A stretch of 64,000 bases of DNA from Tubulanus polymorphus (GCF_964204645.1 NC_134034.1:7824962-7888961); one strand, 5' to 3'. Positions 3,570 through 49,419 are shown, numbered from the stretch's first letter. Translations and numbers: made by a program. Notes: a model not told the origin generated them from the sequence alone.

Positions 3570-6500
3570 ATGGAAGCAAATAAGTACTACTGTTCAACAT
3601 GTAATATCAATATAGATAAATCCCAAAAAGCAAGACACAATAAAACTAAAACACATTTAGAGAATAAATTGAAACTAGAATATAAAGATGATATATTAGA
3701 AACTAAATTAGAAGAATTAAAGAATGAAAAAGAAACATACAAATGTGATACATGTAATCAATCATTCAGTGATAAAAGATATTATAATGAACATTTAAAA
3801 TCTAAAAGTCATATTAGAAATATGAATAATGATATTTTAGGTGAAGATTATTTTGATAAAGATAATGATAAGAAACAGAAGACAATTAAAAACATTAAAA
3901 AAAATTAAACAATAAAAGACCATACATGGAAGATGTAAGAAAATATATTAATTCATTAGATAATAAAAAAGATATAGAGATAACCGAAGCATTTAAAAGT
4001 GATATTGGCCCAGCAGCTATCGAGTTTAAATTTCATAAAGGTAAAACATTAGAAGAAAATAAAAAACATTTAGAAAATATGAAAGAAATACAATAATAAT
4101 AGATGTTGAATACCCTAAAATTAGTATATCAGTTAAAGTAAAGTTTATAAAATCTGAAGATTAACCAATATATAATATTAATTCTCATTCACAACATATT
4201 ATATATTAACAACATATAGATGATAAATTAGATAAATGTTATAATGAAGTAAAAACTAAAATAGAAGAGAAATATTTTGAAGGATCTGGTTTAATATTTG
4301 ATGAAATAATATTTATGACTTTACATGTTTATAACACAAAATATTATAAGTTAACTAAATCAAAACCAATTGATGAAAATAATGTATCATATTATAAAGA
4401 ACCAGATATTGAAGCATCACGTTATGTTAAACTACCATTTAAAACTAATGCTGTTATAAATGTACAAAATGAAGATGATAAATGTTTTGCTGTTAGAAAT
4501 GTACAAAATGAAGATGATAACTGTTTTCTATGGGCTATAATTAGTTGCTTACACCAAGTTGAAGATTATAAACAACATAGTTTTAGATTAACTCATTATA
4601 AACCATTTGAAAATAATTATAAGATAGATAAGTATCCTGTTATAATTAAAAACATCCCAAAAATAGAAAGAGATAATAATATAAAGATAAATGTATTTGA
4701 TTTAATCAAATTACCAAATACAAAAGGTAACAATATAAAACATTATACATTAGAACCTTTATATCTATCAAAAGATTATGATTCAAATGATGTTATAGAT
4801 ATATTATATTATGAGAATCATTGTATGTGGATTAAACAAATAGATTTATTCTTTAGAACAGAAAGTGATCACCATAATAAAATATATCTATGTAGAAAAT
4901 GTTTACATAAATTCAGTAATGAAAGTACACTATTAAATCATAAACAATTATGTGAAAATCATGATTATTGTAAATTAGTTTTACCAAATGAAAAGGATAA
5001 AATATTAGAATTCCAAAAATATGATTACAAAAATAAAGTTCCATTTGTTATATATAGAGATTTTGAATCATTAAATAAGGAACTAACTGATCAAGATAGA
5101 AAAGAAATATATTATAAAAGAAAGAAATTAAATTCTAATGAAAATAATTTTTCAGATGAACCACCAAAAACAAATACAATTAAAAAGATTCATCAATCAG
5201 CTGCAGCTTTCGGGTTATATATTAAATCTGATTATCCAGAACTAATTGAAAGTGAATATTATCATTATAGAATGAAAATGTTATCAATCATTTTTGTGAC
5301 TTATTAATTGAATATGAAATAAAATTTAATGAAAAGTTAAATAAAAATATAGAAATTATAATGACAGAAGAAGATAAAGAAGCATTTGAGTTTGCAGATA
5401 AATGTTATTATTGTGAAAAGATATTTAATTATAAAGATAAAAAAGTAAGAGACCATAATCATTTGAATGGAAAGTTTAGAGGCGCTGCGCATGAAAATTG
5501 TAACTTACAAGCTAAGAAAATTAACTTTGTACCAGTTATATTTCATAATCTATCAGGATATGATGCACATTTATTCATCAAACAGTTATGTTATAAAATA
5601 GAAGGAATTAATAATGAAATAGAAAGATTAAATTCAAATAGATCAAAAGATAAAATACCAACTTATAAATTTAAAATGTTAGCTAAAACATCTGAGAATT
5701 ATATATCATTCCAATTTGGGTGCCTAAGATTTATAAACTCATATAGATTTTTAGGTAGTTCATTAGATAACTTATGAAAATCATTAGTTGATGATGAATT
5801 GAAAATATTAAAACAACACTATCCAAATAATGATGATTTTCAATTAATGAGATATAAAGGCGCAATTCCATATTCTTTCTATAAAAATCATAATGATTTC
5901 AATATAACTGAATTATTGAAAGAACAATTCTATGATGAATTAAAAAATGAATATGTTAAAGATGAAGTATATAATAGAACATTGAATATTTGGAATCATT
6001 TTGGAATGAAAAATCATGGACAATTAGTAGATTCATATCTAAAATCAGATGTATTATTATTAACCGATATATTCGATTTGATTCTTGTCATTGTTATTCA
6101 TTGATCCTTGTCATTGTTATTCAAGTCCAGGATTAACATGGGATTGTGGATTAAAATTTACAGATATAAAAATGGATTTGTTAACAAATATAGATCAATT
6201 ACTATTATTTGAAAAATCTATAAGAGGAGGAGTTTCAGGTGTATTAGGCGATAGATATTTCAATGTAAATGATAACCCTGGATATAAGTTATTATATAAA
6301 GATGCAAATAATTTGTATGGTTGGGCAATGATGGAACCACAACCTTATGGAGTATTTGAAATTAGTGAAGTTTTACAACATGAAAATAATGATACATTTG
6401 ATTGGAAGAAAATGATTCTAGATATTGCAGATGATTCAGATACTGGTTACTTCTTTGTTGTAGATTTAGAATATCCTGAACATATTAAATTTAAATCTAG

Positions 6501-7636
6501 AAATCTAGCATACTGTCCAGAACATAAAACTGTAACTCATGAAGAATTATCAAATTACCAAAAAAGAATTAAACCCGAAAATCATATTCATACAGAAAAG
6601 TTAATGGTAACTCAAGAAGATAAATATAATTATGTAGTACATTATAGAATGTTAAAGTTTTATCTAAAACAAGGAATGATCCTAAAAAAAAGTACATAGA
6701 TATATTTCATTTAGTCAATCTAAGTGGTTAGAAAAATATATAGATTTTAACACCAAACAGAGAACTGAAGCTAAAACTGATTTCGAGAAAGATTTCTTCA
6801 AGTTAATGAATAATGCATTCTATGGTAAGACTTGTGAAAATATTAGAAATAGAAATGATATTGAGTTAGTAAGTAATGGCAAAAGGATAAGGCATTTACA
6901 AACATATCCTAAATTTATAGGTAACAAAATATTTGATGAAAATTTAGCTGCAGTTAAAATGAGAAGAACATCAATGAAATTTAATAAACCAATCTATGTT
7001 GGCGCTTCAGTTTTAGAATTATCAAAATTACTAATGTATGAATTCTATTATAATGTATTACAACCACTTTTTGGAGAAAAACATATAGAAATCTTATATT
7101 TTGATACTGACAGTTACATATTAAAGATAAAAACTAATAACATGACAGATGATTTAAAAACATTAAAACATCATTTTGATTTCAGTAACTATCCTAAAAA
7201 TCATGAATTGTTTAGCAATGATAATAAAAAAGTTCCTGGTAAATTCAAAGATGAATTAGGTGGTGAAAAAATGATTGAATTCATCGGTATAAGATCTAAA
7301 ATGTATTCATATAAAACTAAAGAACATGAAGCTAAAAAGTTAAAAGGAATAACAAAAAGCGTTGTTGAAAAAAATATTCATTTCAAAGATTACATCAATT
7401 GTATATTCAATGAAGAAGTAAGAAAACATTAGATGAAATGTATATGATCTGAAGATCATGAAATGTTTATTGAAGAAATTGAAAAGATAAGTCTAAACCC
7501 ATTTGATGATAAAAGATATATTTTAGATGATGGAATTCATACAGTTGCTTATGGTTGTAATTTAGATGAATACTTAAAATTTAAAAGAGAAGAAACAAAA
7601 GAGAAGGAAATAATGAATAGGATTATAACGTGTTAA
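3570..7636 (+). pseudogene. pPolB: Protein-primed DNA polymerase B, copy A, intein-free allele (frameshifted)
   Basis: N-terminal C2H2 fingers, EndoVII-like RDHxHxxGxxRGxAHxxCN, FHNLSGYD exonuclease, DANNLYG, KLMNNAFYGK, YFDTDS motifs across ORFs 3570-7432. Confidence 0.95.
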
Positions 7637-11259: not shown

Positions 11260-14200
11260 AGAATAAATTGAAATTAGAATATGAAGATGATATATTAGAA
11301 ACTAAATTAGATGAATTAAAGAATGAAAAAGAAACATACAAATGTGATACATGTAATCAATCATCAGTGATAAAAGATATTATAATGAACATTTAAAATC
11401 TAAAAGTCATATTAGAAATATGAATAATGATATTTTAGGTGAGGCTTATTTTGATAATGACAATGTTAAGAAATATAAGACAATTAAAAGAATAAGAAAT
11501 AAATTAAACAATAAAAGACCATACATGGAAGATGTAAGAAATTATATTAATTCATTAGATAATAAAAAACATATAGAGATAACCGAAGCATTTAAAAGTG
11601 ATATTGGTCCAGCAGCTATTGAGTTTAAATTTTATAAAGGAAAAACAGAAGAAAATAAAAAACATTTAGAAAATATGAAAAATATTATAAAAATAATAAC
11701 TGATGTTGAATACCCTAAAATTTGTATATCAGTTAAAGTAAAGTTTATAAAATCTGAAGATAAACCAATATATAATATGAATTCTCATTCACAACATATT
11801 ATATCTAAACAACATATAGATGATAAATTAGATAAATGTTATAATGAAGTAAAAACTAAAATAGAAGAGAAATATTTTGAAGGATCAGGTTTAATATTTG
11901 ATGAGATAATATTTATGACTTTACATGTTTATAACACAAAATATAATAAGTTAACTAAATCGAAACCAATTGATGAAAATAATGTATCATATTATAAAGA
12001 ACCAGATATTGAAGCATCGAGTTGTATTAAACTACCATTTAAAACTAATGCTGTAATAAATGTACAAAATTTTGATGATAAATGTTTTCTATGGGCAATT
12101 ATAAGTTGCTTACATCCAACAGAAGATAATACACATAGTTTTAGATTAACTCATTATAAACCATTTGAAAATAATTATAAGATAGATAAGTATCCTGTTA
12201 TAATTAAAAACATCCCAAAAATAGAAAGAGATAATAATATAAAGATAAATGTATTTGATTTAATCAAATTGCCAAATACAAAAGGTAACAATATAAAACA
12301 TTATACATTAGAACCTTTATATCTATCAAAAGATTGTGATTCAAATGGTGTTATAGATATATCATATTATGAGAATCATTATATGCGGATTAAAAGAATT
12401 GATTTACTTTTTAAATAAGAAAATGATTTTGATAATAAAATATATCTATGTAGAAAATGTTTACATAAATTCAGAACTGAAAGTGCATTATTAAATCATA
12501 AACAATTATGTGAAAATCATGATTATTGTAAATTAGTTTTACCAAATGAAAAGGATAAAATATTAGAATTCAAAAAATATGATTACAAAAATAAAGTACC
12601 ATTTGTAATATATGGAGATTTTGAATCATTAAATAAAGAACTAACTAATCAAGATAGAACAGAAATATATTATAAAAGAAAGAAATTAAATTCTAATGAA
12701 AATGATTTTTCAAATGAACCACCAAAAACAAATGCTATTAAAAAGATTCATCAATCAGCTGCAGCATTCGGGTTATATATTAAATCTGATTATCCAGAAC
12801 TAATTAAAAGTGAATATTATCATTATAGAAATGAAAATGTTATCAATCATTTTTGTGACTTATTAATTGAATATGAAATAAGATTTAGTAAATTATTGAG
12901 TACAAATATAGAAATTATAATGACAGAAGAAGATAAAGAAGCATTTGAGTTTGCAGATAAATGTTATTATTGTGAAAAGATATTTAATTATAAAGATAAA
13001 AAAGTAAGAGACCATGATCATTTGAATGGAAAGTTTAGAGGTGCTGCACATGAGAATTGTAACTTACAAGCTAAGAAAATTAACTTTGTACCAGTTATAT
13101 TTCATAATCTATCAGGATATGATGCACATTTATTTATCAAACAGTTATGCCATAAAATAGAAGAAATTAATAATGAAATAGAAAGATTAAATTCAAATAG
13201 ATCAAAAGATAAAATACCAACTTATAAATTTAAAATGTTAGCTAGAACATCTGAGAATTATATATCATTCCAATTTGGTTGCCTAAGATTTATAGATTCA
13301 TATAGATTTTTAAATAGTTCATTAGATAACTTATCAAAATCATTAGTTGATGATGAATTAAGAATATTAAAGCAACACTACCCAAATAATGATGATTTTC
13401 AATTAATGAGATATAAAGGCGCAATTCCATATTCATTTTATAAATCACATAATGATTTTAATATAACTGAATTATTTAAAGAACAATTCTATGATGAATT
13501 AAAAAATGAATATGTTAAAGATGGAGTTTTTGAAAGAACGATTAATATATGGAATCATTTTAGAATAAAAAGCCATGGTAAATTAGTAGATTTGTATCTA
13601 AAATCTGATGTTTTATTATTAACTGATATATTTGAAAGGTTTAGAGATGTAAACCTAAAATATTTCAATATTGATCCTTGTCATTGTTATTCATCACCAG
13701 GTTTAACATGGGATTGTGGTTTAAAATTTACAGATATAAAAATGGATTTGTTAACAAATATAGATCAATTATTATTATTTGAAAAATCTATAAGAGGAGG
13801 AGTTTCAGGTGTATTAGGGGATAGATATTTCAATGTAAATGATAACCCCGGATATAAGTTATTATATATAGATGCAAATAATTTGTATGGTTGGGCAATG
13901 ATGGAACCACAACCTTATGGAGTATTTGAAATAAGTGAAGTTTCACAACATGAAAATAATGATAAATTTGATTGGAAGAAAAGAATCCTAGATATTGCAG
14001 ATGATTCAGATACTGGTTACTTCTTTGTTGTAGATTTAGAATATCCTGAACATATTAAATTTAAATCTAGAAATCTAGCATACTGTCCAGAACATAAAAC
14101 TGTTACTCATGAAGAACTATCAAATTATCAAAAAAGAATTAAACCCGAAAATCATATTCATACAAAAAAGTTAATGGTAACTCAAGAAGATAAATATGAT

Positions 14201-16259
14201 TATGTAGTACATTATAGAATGTTAAAGTTTTATCTAAAACAAGGAATGATCTTAAAAAAGTACATAGTTATATTTCATTCAGTCAATCTAAGTGGTTTGA
14301 AAAATATATAGATTTTAACACCAAACAGAGAACTGAAGCTAAAACTGATTTCGAAAAAGATTTCTTCAAGTTAATGAATAATGCATTCTATGGTAAGACT
14401 TGTGAAAATATTAAAAATAGAAATGATATTGAGTTAGTTAGTAATGGTAAAAGGATAAGGCATTTACAATCATATCCTAAGTTTTTAGGTAACAGAATAT
14501 TTGATGAAAATTTAGCTGCAGTTAAAATGAGAAGAACTTCTATGAAATTTAATAAACCAATTTATGATGGAGCATCAGTTTTAGAAATATCAAAATTACT
14601 AATGTATGAATTCTATTATAATGTATTACAACCACTTTTTGGAGAAAAACATATAGAAATATTATATTTTGGTTCTGTTACAGCTGACACCCCAATATTT
14701 TTAAAATATAATAATAAAATTTAATTAGAAGAATTTCAGAAATAATTCCAAAACAAAATGAACTTTATATTTCGTATGGTGAAAAAGAATTAATACAAAT
14801 AAATGGATTAATGGATGTTTGGACAAAAAATGGATGGGTGAAATTAAAGAATATAATTAGACATAAAACGAATAAGAAAATCTATAGAGTTAGAACTAAA
14901 TTAGGATTTGTTGATGTTACTGAAGATCATAGTTTAATTAAACAAAATGGTGATGAAATAAAACCAACTGATATAAAAATTGGAGATGAATTATTAAATA
15001 AAAGATTTTACCCAAGAATGAATCATATGTCATTTGATAAAATAATTGATAATATTTATAATATAGAACCCGAAACATAGAAGAAAAAGAATATTTTATC
15101 AAAGGATTTTTTAAGGGTGATGGTTCAGCAGGTGTGTATAAATATGTTACTGGAACTAAATGTTATTGGTATTTATGCAATCAAGATTTGAAATTATTAG
15201 AAAGAATTAAAAAATACTGTGAACAAGTTTATTCACATAAAACATTTAGAATCGGGGATTATATGAAATCATCACAATGTTATAGAATACATGTGAATAA
15301 TACTAAAGATTTTGCAATTAAATATAATGATGAATTCTATATTCATGCAATAGTGAAAAGTAATACTTCAACAAAAGAAAAGATAGTTCCAGATTATGTA
15401 ATAAATGCAAAATATGATTTAAGAAAATGGATTCATTGGATTTTATGCTGTAGATGGTTCAAAAAACTATACAAAACAGAAAACTATATCTTTGGCACAA
15501 AAAGGAAAAGTTGCTATATCAGGATTAAATACATTATGCAATTCATTAGGATTTAATATGTTAGTTAATATTAGAAAGGATAAACTAAATGTATTTCAAT
15601 TAACGCATGTAGAAAATGAAATAACTGAAGAAGCTAGAGATTTATTTGAAATAACCAAATCCAACAGACTATGTTTATGATTTAACAACTGAACATTTAA
15701 TTGTGGATTTCCATTAATCATAAAAAATACAGATTCTTACATATTAAAGATAAAAACTAATAACATAACAGATGATTTAAAAACATTAAAACATCACTTT
15801 GATTTCAGTAATTATCCTAAAGATCATGAATTGTTTAGCAATGATAATAAAAAAGTTCCCGGTAAATTCAAAGATGAATTAGGTGGTGAAGAAATGATTG
15901 AATTCATAGGTATTAGATCTAAAATGTATTCATATAAAACTAAAGAACATGGAGCTAAAAAGTTAAAAGGAATAACCAAAAGTGTAATAGAAAAGAATAT
16001 TCATTTCAAAGATTACATCAATTGTATATTCAATGAAGAAGTTAGAAAACATAAGATGAGATGTTTAAGATCTGAGTACCACGAAATGCTTATTGAAGAG
16101 ATAGAGAAGATAAGTTTAAACCCTTTTGATGATAAAAGATATATTCTGGATGATGGAATTCATACAGTTGCTTATGGTTGTAATTTAGATGAATACTTAA
16201 AATTTAAAAGAGAAGAAACAAAAGAGAACGAGATAATGAAAACAATTCTAACGTGTTAA
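11260..16259 (+). pseudogene. pPolB: Protein-primed DNA polymerase B, copy B, intein-containing allele
   Basis: Same motifs as copy A; stops and frameshifts; 1055-bp insertion in motif C. Confidence 0.95.
14674..15728 (+). mobile_element. Intein with LAGLIDADG homing endonuclease at the pol-c site (degenerate)
   Basis: Block A SVTADTPIF, block B VDVTEDHSL, blocks C/E KGFFKGDGS and IGFYAVDGS, block F DYVYDLTTE, block G LIIKN followed by +1 Thr of TDS; absent from copies A and C. Confidence 0.93.
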
Positions 16260-21916: not shown

Positions 21917-22799
21917 ATGAGTGGGAGTTATATCAATCCTTCTAAGAATCATAGAATATCTCATGCTATTAAAGCAGAAAGATCACATCATATAATTACT
22001 CATAACTAGTAAATACCATCCAAATAGTATTTATTTATCAACCGATATAAAAGTAACCGGTAATAATAATAATTATGTTGTTGATAATGTTGGAAGATAT
22101 TTGATTAGAAAATTAACAATAAAGATCGGTCCAGAAACAGTTTTCTCATTAGATGATTATAATTTATTTATGCATTATAAAGATTTATGGTTAACTAAAG
22201 AAAATAGAAATAATATGATATTTCAAGGCATCCAATCAGAAAACCAAAGTAAATTAAGATCAGAAGCGCATAATGCAATATTAACTAATGCTATAGATAA
22301 ATTGATAAAAAGTATATATGGAAGCAAATATAAAATTCCATTAGACTTTGAATTGATAAATAATAATGCACCTTTATATAAATACGCAATTCAAGTCGCA
22401 ATAAATGTTGATAATTATTATAATCCTGAAATAACAAAAGTAGAAATAACTATCGAAGGAATAGCAAATAAAATATTTTGCCAAGGAATGAGAATGATAG
22501 ATCAATGGCCAGAAATTAGAAAACATTTTATGAATGAAAAAGTAAAATCATCTGAAAATTGTAATATTAATCAAATTGATTATTATACCGGTAATAAATA
22601 TGCACTATGGTTAGATTTTAGAACAACAGAGGATAATTCATTACATGGTTCTGGAAAAAAACTACAGAACACTAAAGATGGAATACAATTATTCATGACA
22701 AAGAATAAAGGAATCAAAAATTTTAAAATGCACATGTATGTTATATCTGACGCGCAATTAATTATTGTAAATTCTCAATTAAATAGTGTTATGTATTAG
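21917..22799 (+). pseudogene. Major capsid protein (double jelly roll), copy B, two internal deletions
   Basis: Homolog of 47338-48603 with segments missing near 22005 and 22395. Confidence 0.7.
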
Positions 22800-24072: not shown

Positions 24073-24684
24073 TTATTTTATAAATTTATATTCATAAGGA
24101 AATTGTAGTCTCAGTAATAATTTTGAACCATTATTATTCTTTAATTTATTCATATATTCATCATGTAATTCAGTAGGTATAATTTGATTTTCTTCCAATG
24201 ATTGTCGCATAGATTTTTTATCTTTGTTATAAAATAAAACTAGAAATCTTATATTCTCCCTAAAGTCTTTAACAATTGAATTATATTTTTGATTTAAAAC
24301 CCATGTTGTTATCCCAAAATGTCTCCCAGAGAAACCTAAATAACACAACTCACTTTCTCTCACTTTTGAATCATGTAAATTTGCACAATCATCTATAATG
24401 AATAATGCATTTGATCCTTTATAAGTATCAATTGCTATTTCTATACAATTATCTTAATTGTCGTTTACTGTTTTAGGATCTAATATAATAAACTTTTTCA
24501 TCTTAACTATATCTCTATTATATGTTTTATTCATTTCATAAGTAGGACAGAATAATATTATATTATCAAAATGATTCTTATAAATACTTTCTAACAAATC
24601 TAATATGAAATGTGTTTTACCACAATTGGTTACCCCAGTAACTAACATATTATGCGGTTCAAATATAAATAAATCTTTATTCAT
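24073..24684 (-). pseudogene. A32/FtsK-HerA-like genome packaging ATPase, copy B
   Basis: Walker A GVTNCGKT, Walker B FIIDD, GRHFGI..NQ..R.N motifs; one internal stop. Confidence 0.9.
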
Positions 24685-24850
24685 TTATTCTTTTAATTTT
24701 ACTAGATAAAATCCATTCATTAAATTTATAATCATATCCTTTATATTTCACCAAAGAATACTTTTTTCCTTTAAGAGTTTTTGTTTTAAATACTTTTTCT
24801 ATTTTGTATTCTATTTCATCTGGATTTGGTACAAGTGATAATTCTTGTTT
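24677..24850 (-). pseudogene. Integrase C-terminal chromodomain remnant (rest of gene deleted)
   Basis: Matches the 3' end of 50210-50749; then jumps directly to the upstream gene. Confidence 0.85.
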
Positions 24851-24859
24851 TAATAATTC

Positions 24860-25301
24860 TATGACTTTACGATTTGACTTATTTTCTGGTATGATAGGTT
24901 TATCATCATTGGAATCATCTTTATCATCAGATTTGAATTTTGATTTATATATTACACCGGATAATATAATAATTGTGATTAACCCAATTGTAATATATAA
25001 GTAATTATTATTCCCAGCATCAGAAGAATTAGATGGATTATTATTTAATAATAATAATAATAATTTATTTTCGTAAACCAGTTACGAGGTATCCAGTGCA
25101 AGCCAACAGGCTGTACATAAAATTAAGGCGCTGGAACCTTGTGCAGAATTTGAATCAATATCAGATAAAGTCTGTGATTCATTTATATCAGTTAATTTCT
25201 TTTTCTTAGCTTTTTTTTAATTCTGAAGATCTTTTACCTAATTCTCTTGCCCATTTAATTTGTTTCTCGGATCTAGGCTTCTTCTTAACACCATCACTCA
25301 T
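24860..25301 (-). pseudogene. Basic N-terminus, single-TM protein (homolog of 28952-29311 and 51350-51703)
   Basis: Sequence homology; interrupted by the retroposon tail. Confidence 0.7.
25047..25147 (-). mobile_element. Short 5'-truncated LINE/SINE 3' tail inserted in a Maverick gene
   Basis: Absent from copy C at the same site; minus strand ends AATAAA+(TTA)n; small stem-loop AGCC-AACA-GGCT; possible ATTT TSD. Confidence 0.7.
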
Positions 25302-27260: not shown

Positions 27261-27454
27261 AGTAATAGGGGTTTAGTTGTTTCATATCAAAGGTTGAGAG
27301 GTTGATAAATTTTCCAAATGTTAAAATAATAATAATTTCTATTTGAATTAGGAGTGTACGCGACTAATTCAAGTAGAAATTATTGTTATTTTCACATTTG
27401 GAAAATTTCTCGACCTCTCGACCTTTGGTATGAAACAACTAAACCCCTATTACT
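27261..27454. repeat. Right-terminal hairpin of copy B (~90-bp imperfect arms)
   Basis: AGTAATAGGGGTTTAGTTGTTTCATA... mirrored by ...TATGAAACAACTAAACCCCTATTACT. Confidence 0.9.
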
Positions 27455-27863
27455 GACGTACACTATCCCAGAAGCCGTCGATACAATAAAATCGTGCCGT
27501 GAAAGAAATCCGTCGACCATTGTCTATCATGTTGGATCTTATGATATTCGTAATAGTGGAAATGCAGAAACATGCATAGGTAAAATGATAGATCTGGTGA
27601 ATTGTACAAAAAACAGATATCCGGACTCGAAAATTGTTATTTCACATGTACCTCCGCGATTCGATGATATCGGCTTGGACGTTGAAGGAAGACTTCTGAA
27701 CGCAACAATTGACTCACTTGCGCGAAATGATCCTAACACTCTGACGGTTAGGCATCACAATCTCAACAACCGGCGCTTCTACAGAGATTCTATTCACCTG
27801 AGTAGATCCGACGGAATCAAGCTCTTCGCGAGAAACTTAGCCAGAGTCGTCAGAAAATCCTAG
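27455..27863 (+). pseudogene. LINE ORF1 C-terminal SGNH esterase-like domain
   Basis: IVYHVGSYDI and RDSIHLS motifs directly upstream of an APE domain, as in CR1/L2-group LINEs. Confidence 0.75.
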
Positions 27864-27916
27864 GGACAATATAACCTAGCTCGAGGAATTTAGGTATCAG
27901 TGTTATTTAATCCATA

Positions 27917-28850
27917 ATGCTCAATATTTGCCACTGGAATATCCAGGGCTTGGGCAATGACTTCGTCAATAAGGCTAAGGATGACTTGTTTAGAAAGCAA
28001 ATAGTACCATATGATATAATTTGTGTAACAGAATCCTATACTAGTATAAATGACTGTGATAAGTATGACTTACCTGGATTTGGTATGGTACACTCATCCA
28101 GAATCAAAAGTAATAATACCCATCGGGCATTTGGAGGTATAGTTGTGTATATCAGGAACTCTGTGAAAAACTGTATTAAAGTAGTGGAAAATCCCTCATC
28201 TGAAATCATCTGGTTCAAAGTCAATAAAGGCCATGATAGAAAACCCATGTATCTGGCATTCTGTTATCTAAGCCCTCTTAATTCGACCTATGGTGCGAAA
28301 CATTCAGACGAAAACTTTCAACTCCTGGAAAAAAGCTGCACCAAGTACTCCAGTCTTGGAGATGTCATGTTAGTGGGGGATTTTAATGCCCGCACATCAG
28401 TTCAAGATGAAAACTTTCAGCTTGATTCATCCGATTTTGAATTCATACCAAATATTGACAACCTATGTAATCAAAAAAGTGTAACGGGTGTTCCTGGTCG
28501 TAGAAATAAGGATAAATATAACAACAAAATGGGCCAAAACATCATTGAGATGTGTAAGTCCCTTAACATGTTTATTTTAAATGGTAGAGCACCTCGAGAT
28601 CCACTTGGTGAATTTACTTGCCACCAGTATAATGGCAGCAGTACAGTAGATCTGGGGATTGTAAATGCAGGATTGTATCGATATATCAATTATTTCTATG
28701 TTCATAAAGCCTGTCAGAACTGTCAGATCACTGTCCGATCGGAATTGGTATTGATATCCATACGCCCAAAACTGAGTACCAAATTAAGTAAATTCAAATT
28801 AAGCATAAGGCCACTGGAGAATAAGCAATAAGCGGAATAATGACATTAAT
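27917..28850 (+). mobile_element. LINE ORF2 apurinic-type endonuclease domain (CR1/L2 group), RT missing
   Basis: HWNIQGL, VTES, GGIVVY, LVGDFNART, TVDLG, and frameshifted LSDHCPI. Confidence 0.88.
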
Positions 28851-28951
28851 TTCTACTGGCGTTATAACATTTTCTAATATCAAACCTATAGAGTATAAAG
28901 ATAAAAATAAATCAGAAGATATTGAAACAGAACACAAATTAACTAAAATAA

Positions 28952-29311
28952 ATGAGTGATGATATTAAGAAGAAGCCTAGATCTGAAAAACAAGTACAGT
29001 GGGCAAAGGAGTTGGGGAAAAGATCTTCAGAATTGAAAAGAGCTAAGAAAAAGAAATTAACTGATATAAATGAATCACAGAAATTATCTGATATTAATTC
29101 GAATGATAACCCATCTAATTATTCGAATACTGGAAGAAATAATTACTTATATATTACAATTGGATTAATCACAGTAATTATATTCTCTGGTGTAATGTAT
29201 AAATCTAAATCTAATAACAATAATGATGATAATGATAAACCTATTATACCAGATAATAAGTCAAATGATAAAGTCATTGAAAATAAACCAAGATTATTAT
29301 TAATGGATTAA
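28952..29311 (+). CDS. 119-aa basic single-TM protein
   Basis: Intact ORF; YLYITIGLITVIIFSGVMY helix. Confidence 0.7.
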   Translation: MSDDIKKKPRSEKQVQWAKELGKRSSELKRAKKKKLTDINESQKLSDINSNDNPSNYSNTGRNNYLYITIGLITVIIFSGVMYKSKSNNNNDDNDKPIIPDNKSNDKVIENKPRLLLMD

Positions 29312-29317
29312 AATCAG

Positions 29318-30981
29318 ATGAAAAAAGAACAATATTTAAGAGATTTATATTATAACCCAGAGAGTGAAGTATCATATTCTAGTGTTACAGAATTATGGGA
29401 TAAAATAAAATTTAATAATGAAAATATAAAATATAGTGAATTAAGATTATGGTTACAAAATCAACCAACATATCAAATCCATAAGAAAATGGATAAAAAT
29501 TATTTAACAAGAAAAGTTATGGTTTCATATATTGATCACTAATGGCAAGCAGATTTAATTGATATGAAAAACTTAGAAGAATACAATAAACAATATTTTT
29601 GGATATTTAATGTTATAGATATATTCAGTAGATACGCATGTAGTATACCAATCAAGAAAAAAACTGGTTTAGAAGTTACTAATGCTTTTAAAAATATATT
29701 TAAAGAAGCTATCCCAGATAAGATACAATTTGATGAAGGTTAAGAATTATATAAGAAACATATAAAAAAATTATTATCTGATAACGATGTAGAGTATTTT
29801 TCAACACACTTGGATAAAAATGCATCTATTATAGAAAGATTTAATAAAACATTGAAAACTAGAATGTGGAAATATTTTACTGCTAATGGAACATATTAAT
29901 AAATCGATGATTTAGTGAAATGTTATAATGATTCTAAACATAGTTCTATAAATATGAAACCAATAAATGCTAGAAAAGAAGATAATTCAGAAGTTGTTTG
30001 GAATAATTTATATGGTGCATTTGTTACACATGATTTTGGAGAACCTAAATTTAAAATTGGACAACATGTTAGAATATCTAAATATAGAAAAACATTTTAT
30101 AAAGGTTAAACCCCAAATTTATAACCAACTGTGGTAAAACATATTTTGTATTAGATTTGTTAGAAACTATTTATAAAAATCATTTTGATTATATGATATT
30201 ATTCTGTCCTACTTATGAAATGAATAAAGCATATAATAGGGATATAGTTAAGATGAAAAGGTTTATTATATTAGATCCTTAAACAGTAAAAGAAAATTTA
30301 GATAATTGTATAAAAATTGCATTAGATATTTATAAAGGATCAAATACATTATTCATTATAGGTGATTGTTTACGATGTAGAGTATTTTTCAACACACTTG
30401 GATAAAAATGCATCTATTATAGAAAGATTTAATAAAACATTGAAAACTAGAATGTGGAAATATTTTACTGCTAATGGAACATATTAATATATCGATGATT
30501 TAGTGAAATGTTATAATGATTCTAAACATAGTTCTATAAATATGAAACCAATAAATGCTAGAAAAGAAGATAATTCAGAAGTTGTTTGGAATAATTTATA
30601 TGGTGCATTTGTTACACATGATTTTGGAGAACCTAAATTTAAAATTGGACAACATGTTAGAATATCTAAATATAGAAAAACATTTTAAAAAGGTTAAACC
30701 CCAAATTTTACAGAAGAAATATTGAAGATTAAAAAGATAATATTAACTAAACCATTTGTTTATAAATTAGAAGATTTAAAAGATGAAGAAATATTAGGTA
30801 TTTTTATGAACGAGAATTATCAATTGTACCTAATCCAGATGAAATAGAATACACAATAGAAAAAGTATTAAAAACAAAAACTCTTTAAGGAAAAAAGTAT
30901 TCTTTGGTGAAATATAAAGGGTACGATGATAAATTTAATGAATGGATTTTATCTAGTAAAATTAAAGGAATAAATGAATAA
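29318..30981 (+). pseudogene. Retroviral-type DDE integrase with chromodomain, copy D, with internal duplication
   Basis: WQADLIDM, IDIFSRY, QFDEGKE, IIERFNKTLK, LVKYKGY..NEWI. Confidence 0.9.
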
Positions 30982-31585
30982 AGATTTATTTATATTTGAG
31001 TCACATACTATGTTAGTTACTGGAGTAACCAACTGTGGTAAAACATATTTTGTATTAGATTTGTTAGAAACTATTTATAAAAATCATTTTGATTATATGA
31101 TATTATTCTGTCCTACTTATGAAATGAATAAAACATATAATAGGGATATAGTTAAGATGAAAAGGTTTATTATATTAGATCCTTAAACAGTAAAAGAAAA
31201 TTTAGATAATTGTATAAAAATTGCATTAGATATTTATAAAGGATCAAATACATTATTCATTATAGGTGATTGTGCAAATTTGCATGATTCAAAAGTAGGA
31301 GAAAGTGATTTGTGCTATTTAGCTTTCTCTGGTAGATATATTGGGATAACAACATGGGTTTTAAATCAAAAATATAATTCAATTGTTAAAGACTTTACGG
31401 AGAATATAAGATTTTTAGTTTTATTCGACGATAAAGATAGAAAATCTATGCAACAATCTCTGGAAGAAAATCAAATTATACCTACTGAATTACATGATGA
31501 ATATATGAATAAATTAAAGAATAATAAAGGTTCAAAATTACTTCTGAGACTACAATTTCCATATGAATATAAATTTATAAAATAA
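30974..31585 (+). pseudogene. Packaging ATPase, copy D
   Basis: GVTNCGKT Walker A; internal stop. Confidence 0.9.
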
Positions 31586-31924
31586 AATCATAATTTAAGC
31601 ATTTATGTATAAGATACGTATTAGATACCTTAATACGTAAAAGATACGTATTAGATACCTTAATACTTAAATTCCCCCTTTTTGAAATAAATATTATTTA
31701 TTTTAATTTTTCAACTAATATATTTTTATATTTTCAACTAATATATGAATAGGTTTGAAAATAATAATGTAAGTTATAACATATGTCAATTAATACATAT
31801 CAGATACATAAATACTTAAATACGTATTAAATACCTTAATACGTATTAAATACGTATTAGATACCTTAATACTTAAAACCCCCTTTTTATTAACTGTTAT
31901 TTTATACCATTTTCAACTAATATA

Positions 31925-32785
31925 TTATGTGAGTTTGTAATAATAAACATCATTTTCATCAGCATCCTCCAATTCATCATCAGACTCTAACATTTCATTC
32001 AACCTATCTATCGGATCATCATAAGTTTCTTCATTATAATCCGTTTTCATCCTATCTACCGCATCATTAATAGTTACTACTTTACGTTTCGTCCAGTCTG
32101 TTTCTATATTTCCTGCTTTCAGTTTCATATAATCTTCATTATCAATATGCTTTCCTGTAACTATATTTTCCTTATCTTCTTTCTTAGTGTTTGGCCTTAA
32201 TATTTTATTTACAATGTTTGATCCTAATATTTTATTAGCATCAGTTAAATCTAATTCATCTATACTGAGTTCAGGTTCCTTTGATAAAAATTCGCCTAAT
32301 AAATCTTTATATAAATCTTCACCATTTACTTTTTTATTTGAAACAAACTTTGTAACATATCTAAATGGGTGTTCTATAAACTCTCTTAAACTAACACGTT
32401 TTATAACATTAGTAATATGTACAGTTGTATTCATATGGTTATTCGAATTTGATGGGCTGTTTAAAAATTCACCTTTACAATAACCACAATAACTTCTTTT
32501 TTCACTATAATTTAAAATTATTTCATTATTACATGTAGAATGTAAAACATTATCAGATGTAGAAGGTAAAACATTATCAGATGTAGAAGGAATAACATTA
32601 TTATCAATTTCATTTCTTAAATTATCAACAACGGCACTTTTATTATTATCTATTTTACTCATTCTATATTTGAATTGATTAAAGTATTGTCCAAAATACT
32701 CACTGTATTCATCATAAGGTATTATATAATATATATCTGATATCATTTCACTTGGACTTTGTATTTCATATATTCCTCCTTCCAT
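31925..32785 (-). CDS. 286-aa zinc-finger protein with PSTS repeats, copy D
   Basis: Intact ORF; core homologous to 48636-49418, different termini. Confidence 0.75.
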   Translation of the reverse strand: MEGGIYEIQSPSEMISDIYYIIPYDEYSEYFGQYFNQFKYRMSKIDNNKSAVVDNLRNEIDNNVIPSTSDNVLPSTSDNVLHSTCNNEIILNYSEKRSYCGYCKGEFLNSPSNSNNHMNTTVHITNVIKRVSLREFIEHPFRYVTKFVSNKKVNGEDLYKDLLGEFLSKEPELSIDELDLTDANKILGSNIVNKILRPNTKKEDKENIVTGKHIDNEDYMKLKAGNIETDWTKRKVVTINDAVDRMKTDYNEETYDDPIDRLNEMLESDDELEDADENDVYYYKLT

Positions 32786-32817
32786 TTATTATAAAAAGTT
32801 TTATTAGAATTAAAATT

Positions 32818-34062
32818 CTAATACATAACACTATTCAATTGAGAATTTATGATATTTAATTGCGCGTCAGATATAAGATAAATGTGCATTTTATAATTTA
32901 AACCTCCTTTTTTCTTTTTCATGAATAATTGTATTCCATCTTTAGTGGTCTGTCATTTCTTCCCAGAACCATGTAATAAGTTATCCTCTGTTGTTCTAAA
33001 ATCTAACCATAGTGCATATTTATTACCGTTATAATAATCTATTTGATTAATATTACAATTTTCAGATGATTTTACTTTTTCATTCATAAAATATTTTCTA
33101 ATTTCTGGCCACTGATCAATAATTCTCATTCCCTGGCAAAATATCTCATTTGCTATGCCTTCAATTGTTATTTCTACTTTTGATATTTCCGGATTATAAT
33201 AATTATCAACATTTATTGCGCCATGAGAATATGTTGCAATTGTAAAAAATATTAATACGCTTTTAATAGATCTTCTTGGGAAGTTAATATTCTCATAGAT
33301 TATTTCATCATTTCCATTAATAGTTACAGTTTTAAATTTATCAATATAATCATATAATAATGAAAATCCTTAATTATATTGAGTGTGAATTGTGCTCGCA
33401 ATATTTTCATCAGTTACTGTATCATATTCTAAACATATATTCGATAATTTATAACCCATATCTTTAACAACGCTAGATAATACAATTTCATTAACAGGAG
33501 CAAATGTTATTTCGAATATAATGTCTTCTTGTATACCATATTTATATAAAGGCGCATTATTATTTATCAATTCAAAATCTAATGGAACTTTATATTTGCT
33601 TCAATAAATCTTTTTTTTCAAATTTTCTGCGGCTCGAGTTACTATTGCGTCATTAGCTCCTGATCTTAATTTATTATGGTTTTTTGATTGGATGCATTGA
33701 AATATCATATTATTTCCATTTTCTTTAACCATAAATCTTTATAATGCATAAATAAATTATAATCCTCTAATGAAAAAATAACCACCGGACCGATCTTTAC
33801 AATTAATTTGATATACAAATATCTCCCAACATTATCTACAACATAATTATTATTATTACCAGTTACATTTATATCAGCCGATAGATAGATACTATTTGGA
33901 ACATAAAAAGTATTTTGATTTTATCTCGCGGGATCTAACATATAAAGTTTCATCAGGATTAATATTAGAAGGATTATGGGTAATAATATGATGAGATCTC
34001 TCTGCTTTAATAGCATTAGATATTCTAGAATTCTTAGAAGGATTTATATAACTACCACTCAT
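32818..34062 (-). pseudogene. Major capsid protein, copy D
   Basis: Homolog of 47338-48603. Confidence 0.7.
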
Positions 34063-34082
34063 TTATTTAACAAAAAATTATT

Positions 34083-35556
34083 ATTTATTTTTTATCATAT
34101 TCACTTACCCAAAAATAACAGCAATAATAGCACTTACAACTGTAATTAAAAATAAGATAATATGTTCAGCAGCAAAGTTAAGAATATTTCCAGCAGATCT
34201 CAAAACAAAACGAACAATTGATGCAATAATTCCGGGTAAAGCTGCAGCAGATTTTTTAGATAGTTCCCATAAATATTTTGCTAATTTCTTTGAACCATCT
34301 TAAACTTTATCTTGTATAGAATTATTATTATTCGGTGGTTTTTCCCGGTGGTTTAGGACTTGGTGTAGATTTTAATGAATTTGATATTGCTAAACCAATT
34401 GTTGTAAATATCATAGTTACATCTGTTAGAATTGAAAGAATTGTGATACCTTCTAATTTAAATAATAATTTCATTCTATCTTTTATTGATATTTCAGAAT
34501 TTGGTTTTATCAGCAAATTTTTAAAAATAACTTTTATTCTATTAATATTATAATCATATGATTTTAATAATGATTTAATCTCTTCTTTCTGAAATTCTAT
34601 GTTATATTAAATATCATCTTTTTCTTTTTCTAATTAAGCATTTCTTTTTATAAATTCAATTTCTTCAATAACTTTATTATCTCTATCTAATTCTAATTGT
34701 TCTATTTCTTTAATTTTATCAGTTCCATCTTTTTCTAAAGTTCTAATTTTAAAATCTCTTATACTTTTATCATGCGCAATTTTATCAGATGCAAGTCTTA
34801 TACTAATAATTTCTCTAATTGCTTTATCAGAAAAAATATTTAAATCTTCTAATTCTTGATCTGTTGCATCTATTAATCCTTTCGGTAAAAGTTTTTTAAT
34901 GGAACTTTATTTGATTTAAGTTTACTAGTTTTGGAAGTTATATTCTCTTGAGAGGTTGTTTCTGTTTCTAAATTATTATTGATTATTTAAAATAATTCAT
35001 TAATTCTTTGTTTAAATACTCTTTTATTTTGATTTATTCATGTGTCGGTAACATTTTCTATTCCATTACTATTACTTATTTTTTTAATTCTAGATGGTTC
35101 TAAATTACTCAAAGTTGATTCTACTAATATTTGTTTTGCTTTTTATAAGTGATATTAATATAATAATCATCTTTCAAATGATAATAATATTCCCCATCTA
35201 AAGAATTAATTCTTTCAATTCTTGTACTAAAAGTCTAGCACCTTTATTATTTATGTTATATCCAGATCTTTCAAATATAGGTTTGAAATGATAAATATAT
35301 TCAATATATTCTAAATTTTGTTTTACTAAATCTGGATTTTCATTTTCAGCATTTATTCCCGATCTAGTTTTTTTTTATCAAACTCGTCTGTTGATGGGCT
35401 TTTAGAGCCACTATCTGCTAAATTAGAATTATACGCTGATCCATCATCATTATCAATATTAGTTTCATTAAAATCAGGTTGTGGTTCATCATTATATCCA
35501 TCATTATTATTTCCCATTTCTCCCATTTCATAAGCGTCTCCACCTTCTACTTCCAT
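34083..35556 (-). pseudogene. Coiled-coil/hydrophobic C-terminus protein, copy D
   Basis: ORF pieces 35353-35556 and 34328-34516 homologous to B and C. Confidence 0.7.
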
Positions 35557-35577
35557 TTATATCTTATAAAAATTAAA

Positions 35578-36750
35578 ATTTAAAATATAATATTCCTCCA
35601 ATTACAATTCCTATACATATAAGTTATAGCGTTTGTCCGCGTATGTTCGGTTTCAAAGCTGAATCATATTTGACGTTTACACAGTGCTAGCATAATAGGT
35701 TCGAATCTGTCAATGCATTTTATTCTATGTATCGATATTTCAATTTACTACAATTCCCATCTTTCTGAATGGCTTTGCAGAAAACCTGTCATCGCTGCTT
35801 GGCAGCTATATTTGTTTTAATCATTTCATGCTGAATAATATCAGTTTTAATATTTTCTGATGTATTGTAATCTTTTATTTTAGAATCATTATTAAATTTA
35901 TTATTCTTAGTTTTAGTTTCTGTTGATTGAATATGTTTTTTAATTTTCTCACCTTCCATTAGTTTTGGAGCAGTGATGATTCCTTTAATTATGTCATTTA
36001 ATCCAAATGAATTATTTATTATTGCAGTTTTAATCAAACTATTATAACCAATTATATTCCCCATCTTTAATACTAAATGATTAGATATAATTAATAAATT
36101 TGGACCTATACAATAATCTAATCTTACATGAGATTTATCTAAATAATTTTGGTACCTGACTATATTTTCTGGAATCGATCTATTTTTATCATTATGAATA
36201 GAATCTTCAAATAAAACTTTAAATTGTTTCTGCGCGTAAAATGAAGTATTATCATTTCCAATTATTGGGGATCTTGTTTCAACTTGAGCGCCTAGAATCC
36301 AAATTAAATATATTCTAATAGATTGATTTATTCTTTGTATACCTGATTTTGTAAAACCTTCACTATTTTCTAAAATGAAATTAATCCAACCATTATTATT
36401 ATCAATTTTATAATTATGATAAGCTCCAATTCTATGCATATAATCAATTCTTTTTTTCATACTGTTCACCATGTAATGTACCATGCGCTCTAGAATCGGA
36501 ATTAATATTTATATTAAATTCATTACATATTTTGTAAAACTTAGATAGATTAATATTATTATCCAATTCTTTAAAATATTTCGATCCAGGTAAAGGGCAT
36601 TCTAATTCGTTTAATATAATTCTAATTTGAAAATATGTGTGAAATCTAAATATTGTATGAATGGATTTTAAATCAGAATAATTTGAATTTTTATCTAAGT
36701 TATTAAGATGATTGTTCTAACTTATACCACATCCTGTTGTTGCACAATCT
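35578..36750 (-). pseudogene. CATTGCG-motif protein, copy D (5' end deleted; foreign ~185-bp insert near the 3' end)
   Basis: ORF 35789-36484 homologous to 44785-45786. Confidence 0.7.
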
Positions 36751-37171
36751 ATATTGTAGATAAAGTAAAACATTTGTTTACCATAAATTTATTTTGTTCA
36801 GTAGATAACTTTATTCTTATTTTATTACAACGATCAATTTTGATAAATTTAATTCCAAATTCATCAGTACTCCCGATTTTCAACCGAGCTCTTCTTTTAA
36901 TTTCCTGCGCTAATGATTCTAAATTATATATTCCTGGTTTTAAAAATAGATGAAAGCATTTATTTTTATTTCTCATATAAATTGCAAAACCTCTATGTTC
37001 GAAAGTTTTATCCGATATATTATGAAAAGAATTACATAAACTTACATTTATTAATTTTAAATCTACACAATTTTTAAATTCTCTATCTAATTGTACTAGT
37101 AAATTATGAGATTTAGAATTTAATAGTTTTCTAAAATCAACATATATTCTATATTCTTTCAATTCTACCAT
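36749..37171 (-). pseudogene. Minor capsid N-terminal half, copy D, fused by deletion to a downstream gene
   Basis: MVELKEYRIYVD.. homology; the intervening small genes are missing. Confidence 0.7.
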
Positions 37172-37192
37172 TTATTTTACATACTTTTTCAT

Positions 37193-37488
37193 ATTATTCG
37201 AAATCTGTATCATGGTGCCATTTTTCATTCTTGCCCTTATATGTGAAATAGAAATCACCAGAACATAATTCTTCTAAATCTTTACTTGATAATCTATGAA
37301 ATCTATCTGGTAAATATGTTCTGAATTTGTATTTATTTCCTTTTAACCTTCATATTCTAAGTGAATTACTAATCTATCTCCATATTTGTTAGCAGCTGTA
37401 TCAATATTTGTAATTAAATATTTCTTATGAATTGTTAATTCTGTTAACTTTTTGAATTCATAATCTACTGATTTGACACTTGTAGTAT
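37193..37488 (-). pseudogene. ORF2, copy D, truncated by the left end of copy C
   Basis: Homology to 16289-16642. Confidence 0.75.
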
Positions 37489-37513
37489 ATTTTGCTCCAC
37501 TTCGCTACCGCTC

Positions 37514-37924
37514 CGCTCCGCGACCAATTGATTTATTTACAATACACAAATTCATATAATAAAATATATTTAAATAATAATAATTATTCTATTATTCAAC
37601 TGAAATACACACGGTTATGAAAATATATTATAGTTTTAAATTACCTTTAATATTTGTTTTTAATGAACTCGACCGTTCAACCTTTAACCTGAAAGCCCAT
37701 TACCCCTATTACTCTTAAAATAATCATATACATGAATAACATTTAAATTGACAGATTATTCAATATAAAAGTGTAAGCTTTTATAGAATAGATATATAGA
37801 TATATTTACAACATTATTTCAATATTCATATTTGTATGAGTTAGATGTTTAAACATTAAAAGTGTAAGTAAAGTGTGATTGAAATAATACATGATATAAA
37901 TCATTGAACTTCTAGAATCAATTT
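37514..37924. repeat. Left TIR of copy C
   Basis: Reverse complement of 55342-55726; matches 3139-3545 of copy A. Confidence 0.92.
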
Positions 37925-37945
37925 TAAAAAAAATTTGATATTAAA

Positions 37946-40900: not shown

Positions 40901-41968
40901 CCAAAAAAGAATTAAACCCGAAAATCATATTCATACAGAAAAGTTAATGGTAACTCAAGAAGATAAATATAATTATGTAGTACATTATAGAATGTTAAAG
41001 TTTTATTAGAATCAAGGAATGGTTCTAAAAAAAGTACATAGATATATTTCATTCAGTCAATCTAAGTGGTTAGAAAAATATATAGATTTTAACACCAAAC
41101 AGAGAACTGAAGCTAAAACTGATTTCGAAAAAGATTTTTTTAAACTAATGAACAATGCATTCTATGGTAAGACTTGTGAAAATATTAGAAATAGAAATGA
41201 TATTGAGTTAGTTAGTAATGGTAAAAGAATTAAACATTTACAATCATATCCTAAATTTATAGGTAACAGAATATTTGATGAAAATTTAGCTGCAGTTAAG
41301 ATGAGAAGAACATCAATGAAATTTGATAAACCAATCTATGTTGGCGCTTCAGTTTTAGAATTATCAAAATTACTAATGTATGAATTCTATTATAATGTAT
41401 CACAACCACTTTTTGGAGAAAAACATATAGAAATATTATATTTTGCTACTGACAGCATAACATAACTGATAACATAACTGATGATTTAAAAACATTAAAA
41501 CATCATTTTGATTTTAGTAACTATCCTAAAGATCATGAATTGTTTAGCAATGATAATAAAAAAGTTCCCGGTAAATTCAAAGATGAATTAGGCGGTGAAG
41601 AAATGATTGAATTCATTGGTATTAGGTCTAAAATGTATTCATATAAAACTAAAGAACATGAAGCTAAAAAGTTAAAAGGAATGACCAAAAGTGTAGTAGA
41701 AAAGAATATTCATTTCGAAGATTACATCAATTGTATATTCAATGAAGAAGTTAGAAAACATAAGATGAGATGTTTAAGATCTGAAGATCATGAAATGTTT
41801 ATTGAAGAAATTGAAAAGATAAGTCTAAACCCATTTGATGATAAAAGATATATTTTAGATGATGGAATTCATACAGTTGCATATGGTTGTAATTTAGATG
41901 AATACTTGAAATTTAAAAGAGAAGAAACAAAAGAGAACGAGATAATGAAAAGAATTCTAACGTGTTAA
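37946..41968 (+). pseudogene. pPolB: Protein-primed DNA polymerase B, copy C (no intein; indel scar at motif C)
   Basis: Same motif set; multiple frameshifts. Confidence 0.95.
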
Positions 41969-41997
41969 TCAAATTTTAATAAAAATATCTATTATAA

Positions 41998-42350
41998 ATG
42001 GAGAGTAAACAAACACACAGTGAGAACAACAAATTATTTCTAGATAGAATAAAAGATACTACAAATGTAAAATCTGTAGATTATAAATTCAAAAAGTTAA
42101 CAGAATTAACAATTCATAAGAAATATCTAATTACAAATATTGATACAGTTACTAATAACTATTGAAATAAATTAGTTATACACTTAGAATATGAAGGATT
42201 AAAAGGAAATACATATAAATTCAGAACATATTTACCAGATAGATTTCATACATTATCAAGTGAAGACTTAGAATAATTATGTTCTGGTGATTTCTATTTC
42301 GTATACAAAGGTAAGAATGAAAAAGGGCACCATGAAATAGATTTCGAATA
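41998..42350 (+). pseudogene. ORF2, copy C
   Basis: Homology; internal stops. Confidence 0.75.
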
Positions 42351-42369
42351 AAAAAAATATGTAAAATAA

Positions 42370-43127: not shown

Positions 43128-43144
43128 TTGTTTTCACTATATAA

Positions 43145-44613: not shown

Positions 44614-44629
44614 TTTTTTAATTATATAA

Positions 44630-49418: not shown

Positions 49419-49419
49419 A

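Follow-up and report, generated by a model that had tools for sequence, protein, structure and literature searches.

A decayed pol-c intein in a Polinton DNA polymerase and the clade of Polinton-polymerase inteins to which it belongs

Introduction

The locus studied here raises the question of whether a 1055-bp insertion in the catalytic motif of a Polinton protein-primed DNA polymerase (pPolB) is an intein and, if so, how an intein came to reside in such a polymerase. A passage in Ogata et al. (2005; PMC549080) places the intein of the Mimivirus PolB at residues 1053-1403 and defines its insertion site as the pol-c allele. Inteins of invertebrate iridoviruses are counted among the NCLDV inteins in a portion of PMC5784728. 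Inteins are stated to be absent from metazoan genomes in passages of PMC8529194 and PMC5784728, where this absence serves as the rationale for the use of intein inhibitors as antimicrobials. In Polintons, HNH and VSR inserts have been reported in nematode pPolBs by Jeong et al. (10.1101/2023.08.22.554363), where the word intein is absent, and a single sentence in a portion of Krupovic et al. (PMC11161782) suggests that the endonuclease inserts in pPolB are results of intein invasions.

Full-text searches of the literature turned up no Hint-LAGLIDADG intein described from a Polinton polymerase; supplements, Repbase, InBase and subscription journals could hold an annotation of one. Inteins are not mentioned in PMC8502044, PMC13215967 and 10.64898/2026.10.13.758929 and are mentioned only in general in PMC12220804 and PMC13768754, and the words Polinton, Maverick, animal and metazoa do not occur in the text of PMC10710043. 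The clade of Polinton-polymerase inteins described below is apparently undescribed.

Results

The Polinton elements of the window

The window, i.e., the whole stretch of 64,000 nucleotides that was analyzed, is a nest of Polinton copies, in which the pPolB genes A, B and C share 92-94% DNA identity over their 5' parts. All three are on the plus strand. Copies A (3582-7633) and C (37949-41968) are broken, empty alleles identified by alignment. Copy B consists of an N-extein (11357-14673; profile match and alignment) and of a C-extein that begins with TDS (15729-16259; alignment). The N-extein contains an Endonuclease VII (HNH) insert, is interrupted by a stop near 12416 and by a frame break near 14250, and has Gly at position -1 of motif C. 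The window pPolB matches PF03175 weakly, its HNH insert is separate from the putative intein, and it probably belongs to the "Beta" class as set out in a portion of PMC8502044.

In addition to pPolB, element B encodes a major capsid protein (21996-22799, plus strand), identified by a weak match to Pfam Capsid_N that is below the cut-off, and, on the minus strand, an A32-like packaging ATPase (24073-24636; profile match below the Pfam cut-off) and a chromodomain (24677-25081; profile match) that is likely the tail of an integrase. The integrase core was not found in element B, and the chromodomain alone was kept. An rve integrase was identified by profile match on the minus strand of element C (50243-51139), and a second one lies at 29474-30948 in an inverted copy, D; in both copies a chromodomain accompanies it. 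The pPolB, the A32 ATPase and the jelly-roll capsid protein of Polintons/Mavericks are present, and the integrase is found in the sister elements C and D. No adenain-like protease was matched in the window by a motif scan or by tblastn with the ORFs of the Polinton loci L164 and L171, at both of which the pPolB site is empty; the protease may be too diverged or lost. Element C (37514-55726, plus strand) is about 18.2 kb long and is bounded by inverted repeats of ~430 bp (37514-37945 and 55319-55726; 89% identity), and no clear 6-bp target duplication was found at its ends.

The surroundings are composite. Elements A and B are fused internally at 11257, such that A ends inside a downstream gene and B begins inside the 5' part of pPolB. 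Copy D (28840-37493) is a fourth Polinton copy, inverted and partial, with remnants of integrase, ATPase and capsid genes, without pPolB, and with 79-89% identity to the others. A LINE fragment with an ORF1-like frame and an APE endonuclease (27336-28831, plus strand; profile match) lies at the right end of element B and is preceded by short tandem repeats. A 5-kb palindrome at 58764-63780 has 2325-bp arms that are 99.8% identical and a 367-bp spacer; it carries small ORFs and a 24-bp tandem array resembling that at 1-1142, and its stretch 58967-59128 resembles a Polinton terminal repeat. It is possibly a fold-back Polinton derivative. About 1.8 kb at 56450-58237 are skipped by many reads, which indicates an insertion inside a high-copy repeat.

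The insertion in pPolB copy B

Alignment of the three copies places an exact insertion of 1055 bp at 14674-15728 of copy B, between YFG and TDS, while the insert is missing from copy A, with YFD|TDS at 7105|7106, and from copy C, with YFA|TDS at 41447|41448. This bears out what had been reported from the sequence alone in an earlier note on this DNA, including the empty state of A and C and the change of YFD to YFG. The site is pol-c, YxD|TDS, in motif C of the Polinton pPolB.

The insert comprises ~350 codons on the plus strand and was translated as six pieces, which are separated by five frame breaks near 14720, 15077, 15431, 15655-15666 and 15694. Intein blocks A, B, C, D, E, H, F and G are all present and readily aligned with those of relatives, and every motif quoted in the earlier note was found in the six-frame translation. 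Translation and block alignment identified block A with its Ser1 nucleophile (SVTADTPIFL; 14674-14703), block B with TxxH (GFVDVTEDHSL; 14904-14936), the first LAGLIDADG motif in block C (YFIKGFFKGDGS; 15092-15127), which also has a profile match, the second LAGLIDADG motif in block E (GFYAVDGS; 15438-15461) and block F (DYVYDLTTE; 15667-15693). Block G, identified by alignment, is of a short form that ends in Lys-Asn and is followed by Thr at +1 (FNCGFPLIIKN; 15696-15728). In the block alignment, both the insert and its relatives show the pair of dodecapeptide motifs, with an acidic catalytic residue in each. The residues of class-1 inteins are likewise present, i.e., the N-terminal Ser, TxxH in block B, Asp in block F, the terminal Asn and Thr at +1. 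The penultimate His, a frequent but dispensable feature of such inteins, is absent from the insert, in which the residue is Lys, as it is in Mimivirus; the related inteins P0104, P0111 and P0112 have His. A Lys-Asn end had been regarded as unusual, which it is not: it terminates 118 of the 168 inteins extracted in this study, and His-Asn terminates 41.

Matches to Hint and LAGLIDADG profiles, to which the earlier note had looked as a check, do exist, but those of the window pieces are all under the curated cut-offs (Intein_splicing, E 0.0015; LAGLIDADG_3, E 0.0009; TIGR01445, E 0.00025 for one piece). The GC content of the intein equals that of the extein (0.24) and is uninformative. An Rfam search found no match. 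Spliceosomal and group I introns were ruled out, as the insert is protein-coding throughout and has intein termini.

From its sequence, the insert can be identified as a decayed class-1 pol-c intein with a two-motif LAGLIDADG endonuclease. An open frame continuous with both exteins, which is found in relatives, is interrupted five times in this copy, which therefore appears as a decayed member of an intein family and is predicted to be dead, capable of neither splicing nor cutting. The density of frame breaks in the intein (5 in ~350 codons) is about nine times that in the extein (2 in ~1300 codons; binomial P about 0.006). A mosaic copy, error-prone repair in the course of homing or amplification of a dead subfamily could account for this excess.

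Reads from the same species label

Four runs that share this species label and come from two studies cover the whole insert. Both junction types are present in read runs of the two studies, which ruled out an assembly artifact. Among the raw reads of run X5, from another sample, 241 cross the filled 5' junction and 224 the empty joint, and the depth is ~215-250 over the 5' half of the intein and 410-730 over the exteins; together, the junction counts and the depth ratio put the filled share of family copies at roughly 40-50% in X5. The number of filled copies would be several to tens, and no clearly single-copy stretch that could calibrate copy number was found in the window. Runs X6 and X7 contain next to nothing of 52000-59200.

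The Gly of the window copy at -1 occurs in 0 of the 241 filled-junction reads of X5, and the state of this copy at two of the frame breaks is found in only about a fifth of the reads (40/180 and 47/228). Over the last 170 bases of the intein, the read depth is ~20, with loose read ends, compared to ~230 in the 5' part. The fall in depth and the loose ends suggest that most filled copies likely have a diverged 3' part of the intein and that at least two intein variants exist. Reads from other samples are mostly diverged at 15430-15726, which suggests a second intein variant or a mosaic copy.

Intact relatives in other pPolBs

The BLAST comparison of the window intein, read through with X at the breaks, gave 61.5% identity over 356 columns (E 5e-143) to the intact intein of P0003, 45-47% to the inteins of P0010 and of the P0104 family and 37% to that of Mimivirus; among the inteins of RNA-primed PolBs, none exceeded 40%. 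The P0003 and Mimivirus matches are well above what chance would give. The earlier identification of a real pol-c LAGLIDADG intein inside a Polinton pPolB is thus supported by the blocks, the site and the P0003 match. Whole intein-bearing pPolBs with an open frame are P0003 (1693 aa), P0010 (1603), P0104 (1537), P0111 (1504) and P0112 (1509). Partial proteins with a pPolB N-extein and an intein are P0002, P0007, P0009, P0011/P0099, P0012, P0273 and P0418, and the fragments P0001, P0260, P0268 and P0270 are nearest to pPolB inteins; the P0270 fragment starts with Cys rather than Ser. P0104 passes the Pfam cut-offs for Intein_splicing (PF14890), Hom_end and LAGLIDADG_3 and also the cut-off for TIGR01445, while P0003, P0010 and P0111 are below the cut-offs for PF14890 and TIGR01445. 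The 28 invariant columns over 51 aligned inteins include S1, T84, H87, D151 (nearly invariant), D261, D336 and N354.

An AlphaFold2 model of the P0003 intein, which was built from the 51-row alignment, has a pLDDT of 93.6 and a pTM of 0.92. Its best PDB matches are TliVMA (E 6e-18), PI-PkoII, PI-PfuI and PI-SceI, with E values ranging to 6e-11, and I-DmoI is also matched; its best named viral matches are NCLDV polymerases. The model predicts a Hint fold with an inserted endonuclease for this intact relative, as distinct from the window copy.

For phylogenetic analyses, 168 inteins were extracted from 242 proteins. In the SH-aLRT tree, in which 81 of the 168 rows were kept after clustering, the pPolB inteins form one clade (10/10 rows, SH-aLRT 100, stem 0.51), and a clade was again recovered with 6/6 rows (support 100/100). 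The exteins of the intein-bearing pPolBs are only 25-61% identical to that of the window. Given that the closest relatives of the window intein are inteins of other pPolBs, the sequences point to a lineage that is long resident in Polintons rather than a one-off, and to a jump that did not take place in the window element.

A search of viral contigs with whole P0003 found no relative. Scanning viral, metagenome and prokaryote contigs revealed NCLDV-type and archaeal inteins, the two empty-site Polinton loci L164 and L171 and one 4.2-kb pPolB contig, L056, which has a frame-broken or partial intein and offers no context; no intact filled copy in genomic context was found among these contigs. 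Inteins of the same sequence family are also found at other sites, in type II topoisomerase-like proteins (P0004/P0101, P0018 and P0044).

Relationship to giant-virus inteins

Over aligned columns, the pPolB inteins are 42-49% identical to the Mimivirus intein, while the polymerase domains are 22-28% identical. This difference argues that the intein crossed between RNA-primed and protein-primed polymerases. Of 375 proteins, 305 have exteins that match the Mimivirus PolB best, and many loci are on giant-virus contigs; virus names are attached only to the relatives of Mimivirus and to Mimiviridae sp. ChoanoV1, and the other rows are "NCLDV-type" by the best match of their exteins.

Two trees were rooted on archaeal pol-c inteins, a quick tree with 47 of 71 NCLDV-type rows (315-470 aa) and 10 of 21 archaeal rows, and a careful tree with 41 hand-picked rows. 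In both, the pPolB clade is placed inside the NCLDV-type inteins, and this placement is subtended by starred branches (96 and 95 in the quick tree; 97/98 in the careful tree). In the careful tree, the pPolB clade is the sister (83/91) of a group with ChoanoV1; as this group, which has a short block G, was chosen after the first tree had been seen, its support is not an independent test. Block G is one residue shorter in the pPolB inteins and in the ChoanoV1 group, and among 158 non-pPolB inteins, 32 have the short form and 121 the longer one. An iridovirus donor, an idea that came from P0005, was dropped, as P0005 is not near the pPolB clade in three trees.

These results favor a direction from NCLDVs to Polintons. 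The opposite direction, from Polintons to NCLDV PolBs, or an unsampled donor for both, appears rather unlikely. The approximately unbiased (AU) tests allow a pPolB clade that is sister to all NCLDV inteins: for NCLDV monophyly with the pPolB clade outside, p is 0.566 with the quick tree, for which the constrained tree is 3.6 lnL better, and 0.182 with the careful tree. Moreover, the archaeal root is on long branches, and the stem of the pPolB clade is long (0.44-0.51 across trees). Against such an origin are the placement of the clade within NCLDVs in both rooted trees, the restriction of the shared short block G to one NCLDV subgroup and the far greater number and diversity of NCLDV inteins in every search. 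Thus, of the proposal that an NCLDV PolB intein moved into a Polinton, the relationship stands, since the nearest non-Polinton relatives are NCLDV PolB inteins, while the AU tests leave the direction favored rather than fixed. The description of the Mimivirus intein on which that proposal drew was right: the intein has 351 aa, an SVTGDTPI start, a DVTEDHSL block B and an MIVKN|TDS end.

The host of the window DNA

Independently of its origin, the intein could be real and the DNA non-animal, from a fungus, a protist or a symbiont contig, in which case nothing would follow for animal genomes; indeed, of the three Atlas clusters that best match the window pPolB, one is commonest in Mucoromycota. 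However, the best pPolB cluster is commonest in Arthropoda, and the five named relatives among 120 are from ants and a wasp (34-36% identity). The LINE fragment is the chief pointer to an animal: the clusters of its endonuclease are 100% eukaryotic and commonest in Mollusca. The element is surrounded by nested Polintons, the LINE, a microsatellite and repeats of high copy number that recur in other runs with the same species label. A non-animal source is therefore unlikely, and the sequence relationships make an invertebrate animal very probably the host of the window DNA.

Filled and empty alleles

Filled alleles are rare among the closest full-length relatives of the window extein (2 of 120), and the three closest relatives of the copy B extein (87% at best) are all empty. 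On an extein tree in which 12 of 38 rows are filled, at least 8 changes between filled and empty are required, of which 7 are forced by starred branches, and 27 of 500 label shuffles were as clustered; the empty rows are the 26 of 111 usable rows that were kept as empty alleles, so labelled by a BLAST test.

The P0104 cluster has 136 members, and the 15 listed, on contigs of 57 kb to 1.0 Mb, include seven filled alleles, five empty alleles and three fragments. For the 12 filled and empty members among the 136, compared at the protein level, identity is 99.2% among the filled exteins and 97.0% between these and the empty alleles, and all 10 fixed differences between filled and empty are at -7 to +44 of the site, among 1193 columns. 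The empty alleles of the family also vary most around -7 to +44. In the protein sequences, this footprint is likely one of homing, whether by co-conversion from a foreign donor or by survival of cut-resistant empty sites, and recombination between two sub-lineages could mimic it. Empty alleles P0223-P0228 of this cluster differ at the target (YFD|TDAM, YGD|TDAM and YTD|CDSM), and these variants might be cut-resistant alleles. In the window itself, copies B and A differ at 4 of the first 9 bases of the C-extein, all synonymous, against a background of ~6.5% (P about 0.002), but this sign of co-conversion is weakened by 104 X5 reads that join the empty site at a position fitting the B-type flank.

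Homing between filled and empty Polinton copies is likely what maintains the clade, judging from these sequences. The alternative is that the intein was inherited vertically from a remote pPolB ancestor, that empty alleles arose only through repeated precise loss and that homing has played no recent part. In its favor, 118 of the 120 nearest full-length relatives are empty, some of the empty reads may carry the filled-type flank, and among the Beta-like pPolBs, the intein and extein subclades broadly match, with roughly parallel identities for intein and extein of 63/61, 51/47 and 41/47, which would fit vertical descent with losses as well as homing. A comparison of intein and extein trees, which the earlier note had called for, thus gave discordance across the divide between pPolBs and NCLDVs and broad congruence among Beta-like pPolBs; at the latter level, part of what that note had named as refuting its view is observed. 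Vertical inheritance is quite improbable nevertheless, given that the fixed differences of the P0104 family are clustered at the site, that both endonuclease motifs are kept in 5/5 intact pPolB inteins aligned and that, in comparisons with P0010 and Mimivirus, conservation of the intein is about double that of the polymerase. The exception to the matching subclades is P0010, which has a strong PF03175 match and a VSR-like motif: its identity to the others is 23-26% in the polymerase domain and 42-49% in the intein. This difference suggests that the intein likely jumped between two large pPolB groups.

The literal scenario of the earlier note, in which the intein passed once, and fairly recently, from a giant virus to the window element and was then endogenized, has the Mimivirus-like size, start and end in its favor. 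It is very improbable, because far closer inteins (62% and 45-47% identity, compared to at most 40% for giant viruses) reside in other pPolBs whose exteins have diverged widely, and because these inteins form one clade on a long stem.

Discussion

Our preferred reading, to which we give a probability of about 0.75, is that the window insert is a decayed intein of one clade of Polinton-pPolB inteins, which came once and long ago from a Mimiviridae-type PolB and has been maintained by homing.

The mechanisms of class-1 intein splicing and of endonuclease homing are textbook knowledge, and they suggest how such a lineage could persist. An intact pPolB, such as P0003, P0104 and others, would be translated as a precursor of ~1500-1700 aa in which the catalytic D-T-D motif is split. 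As predicted from the conserved residues and the fold, excision of the intein would rely on Ser1, the Thr and His of block B, the terminal Asn and the Thr at +1, and would make the motif whole again. The P0104 footprint is consistent with the next two steps, in which the freed endonuclease would cut the empty sites of other copies and these would then be converted by repair templated on a filled copy, with a short flank carried along. The founding jump would have brought giant-virus and Polinton DNA together in one cell, i.e., by co-infection, and was probably guided by little beyond the conserved codons of motif C. It would be old, and its host need not have been an animal. As P0010 suggests, the intein likely moved once more at a later time, from one of the two large groups of pPolBs to the other.

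Comparison with known systems shows what is shared and what is not. The Mimivirus PolB intein has in common with that of the window the motif-C site, a length of about 350 residues (351 in Mimivirus), Ser1, block B, a Lys-Asn terminus followed by Thr and two LAGLIDADG motifs. It differs in having a longer block G and in residing in the RNA-primed PolB of a free giant virus, whereas the window intein, a member of a separate clade, interrupts the protein-primed polymerase of an integrated element. The NCLDV inteins of the ChoanoV1 subgroup (P0210, P0070, P0127 and relatives) have the same short block G, in most cases FNTGFPLIVKN, and form the sister group of the pPolB clade in the careful tree; they differ in their NCLDV-type PolB exteins, in a BLAST identity of at most about 40% and in that the sister relationship has moderate support. 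Archaeal pol-c inteins, of which 21 came from GTDB genomes and to which PI-PkoII is a relative of solved structure, have the same YxD|TDS site, a Ser start, an Asn end and a similar fold, while they differ in their greater length (381-456 aa), in the His-Asn end and in their distant sequence, and they served as the outgroup here.

The HNH and VSR inserts reported earlier are also endonucleases in Polinton polymerases, but, in the available portion of their description, they are elsewhere in the protein and no splicing domain is described for them. The window pPolB has both kinds, i.e., an HNH insert and a separate Hint-LAGLIDADG intein at the catalytic motif. Iridovirus inteins and the endogenized giant-virus genes of algae and protists, as presented in portions of PMC5784728 and PMC10710043, are alike in being inteins of animal viruses or of nuclear DNA; they differ in that they are in NCLDV genes, and those portions contain no Polinton or animal-chromosome case.

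The family would be an exception to the stated absence of inteins from metazoans, though in a viral gene rather than a host gene. It would also extend the hosts of pol-c inteins to protein-primed polymerases and to Polintons, and would mark past contact between Polintons and giant viruses as well as between two Polinton polymerase lineages. Given that a frameshift or a failure of splicing would kill the polymerase, the intact state of P0104 in many near-identical copies suggests that the gene is translated and spliced, and this intactness bears on the question of how active Polintons are. The filled and empty alleles that are 97% identical make homing among dispersed nuclear copies directly testable. 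A wider reading, which in our estimate falls somewhat short of an even chance, is that of an active homing intein in animal germlines, which would be derived from giant viruses, splice from Polinton polymerases, cut and convert dispersed empty copies, select for altered targets and have jumped between major polymerase lineages. If this is true, the intein would amount to a gene drive of natural origin that acts across transposon copies, and would preserve a fossil record of Polintons and Mimiviridae having shared a cell.
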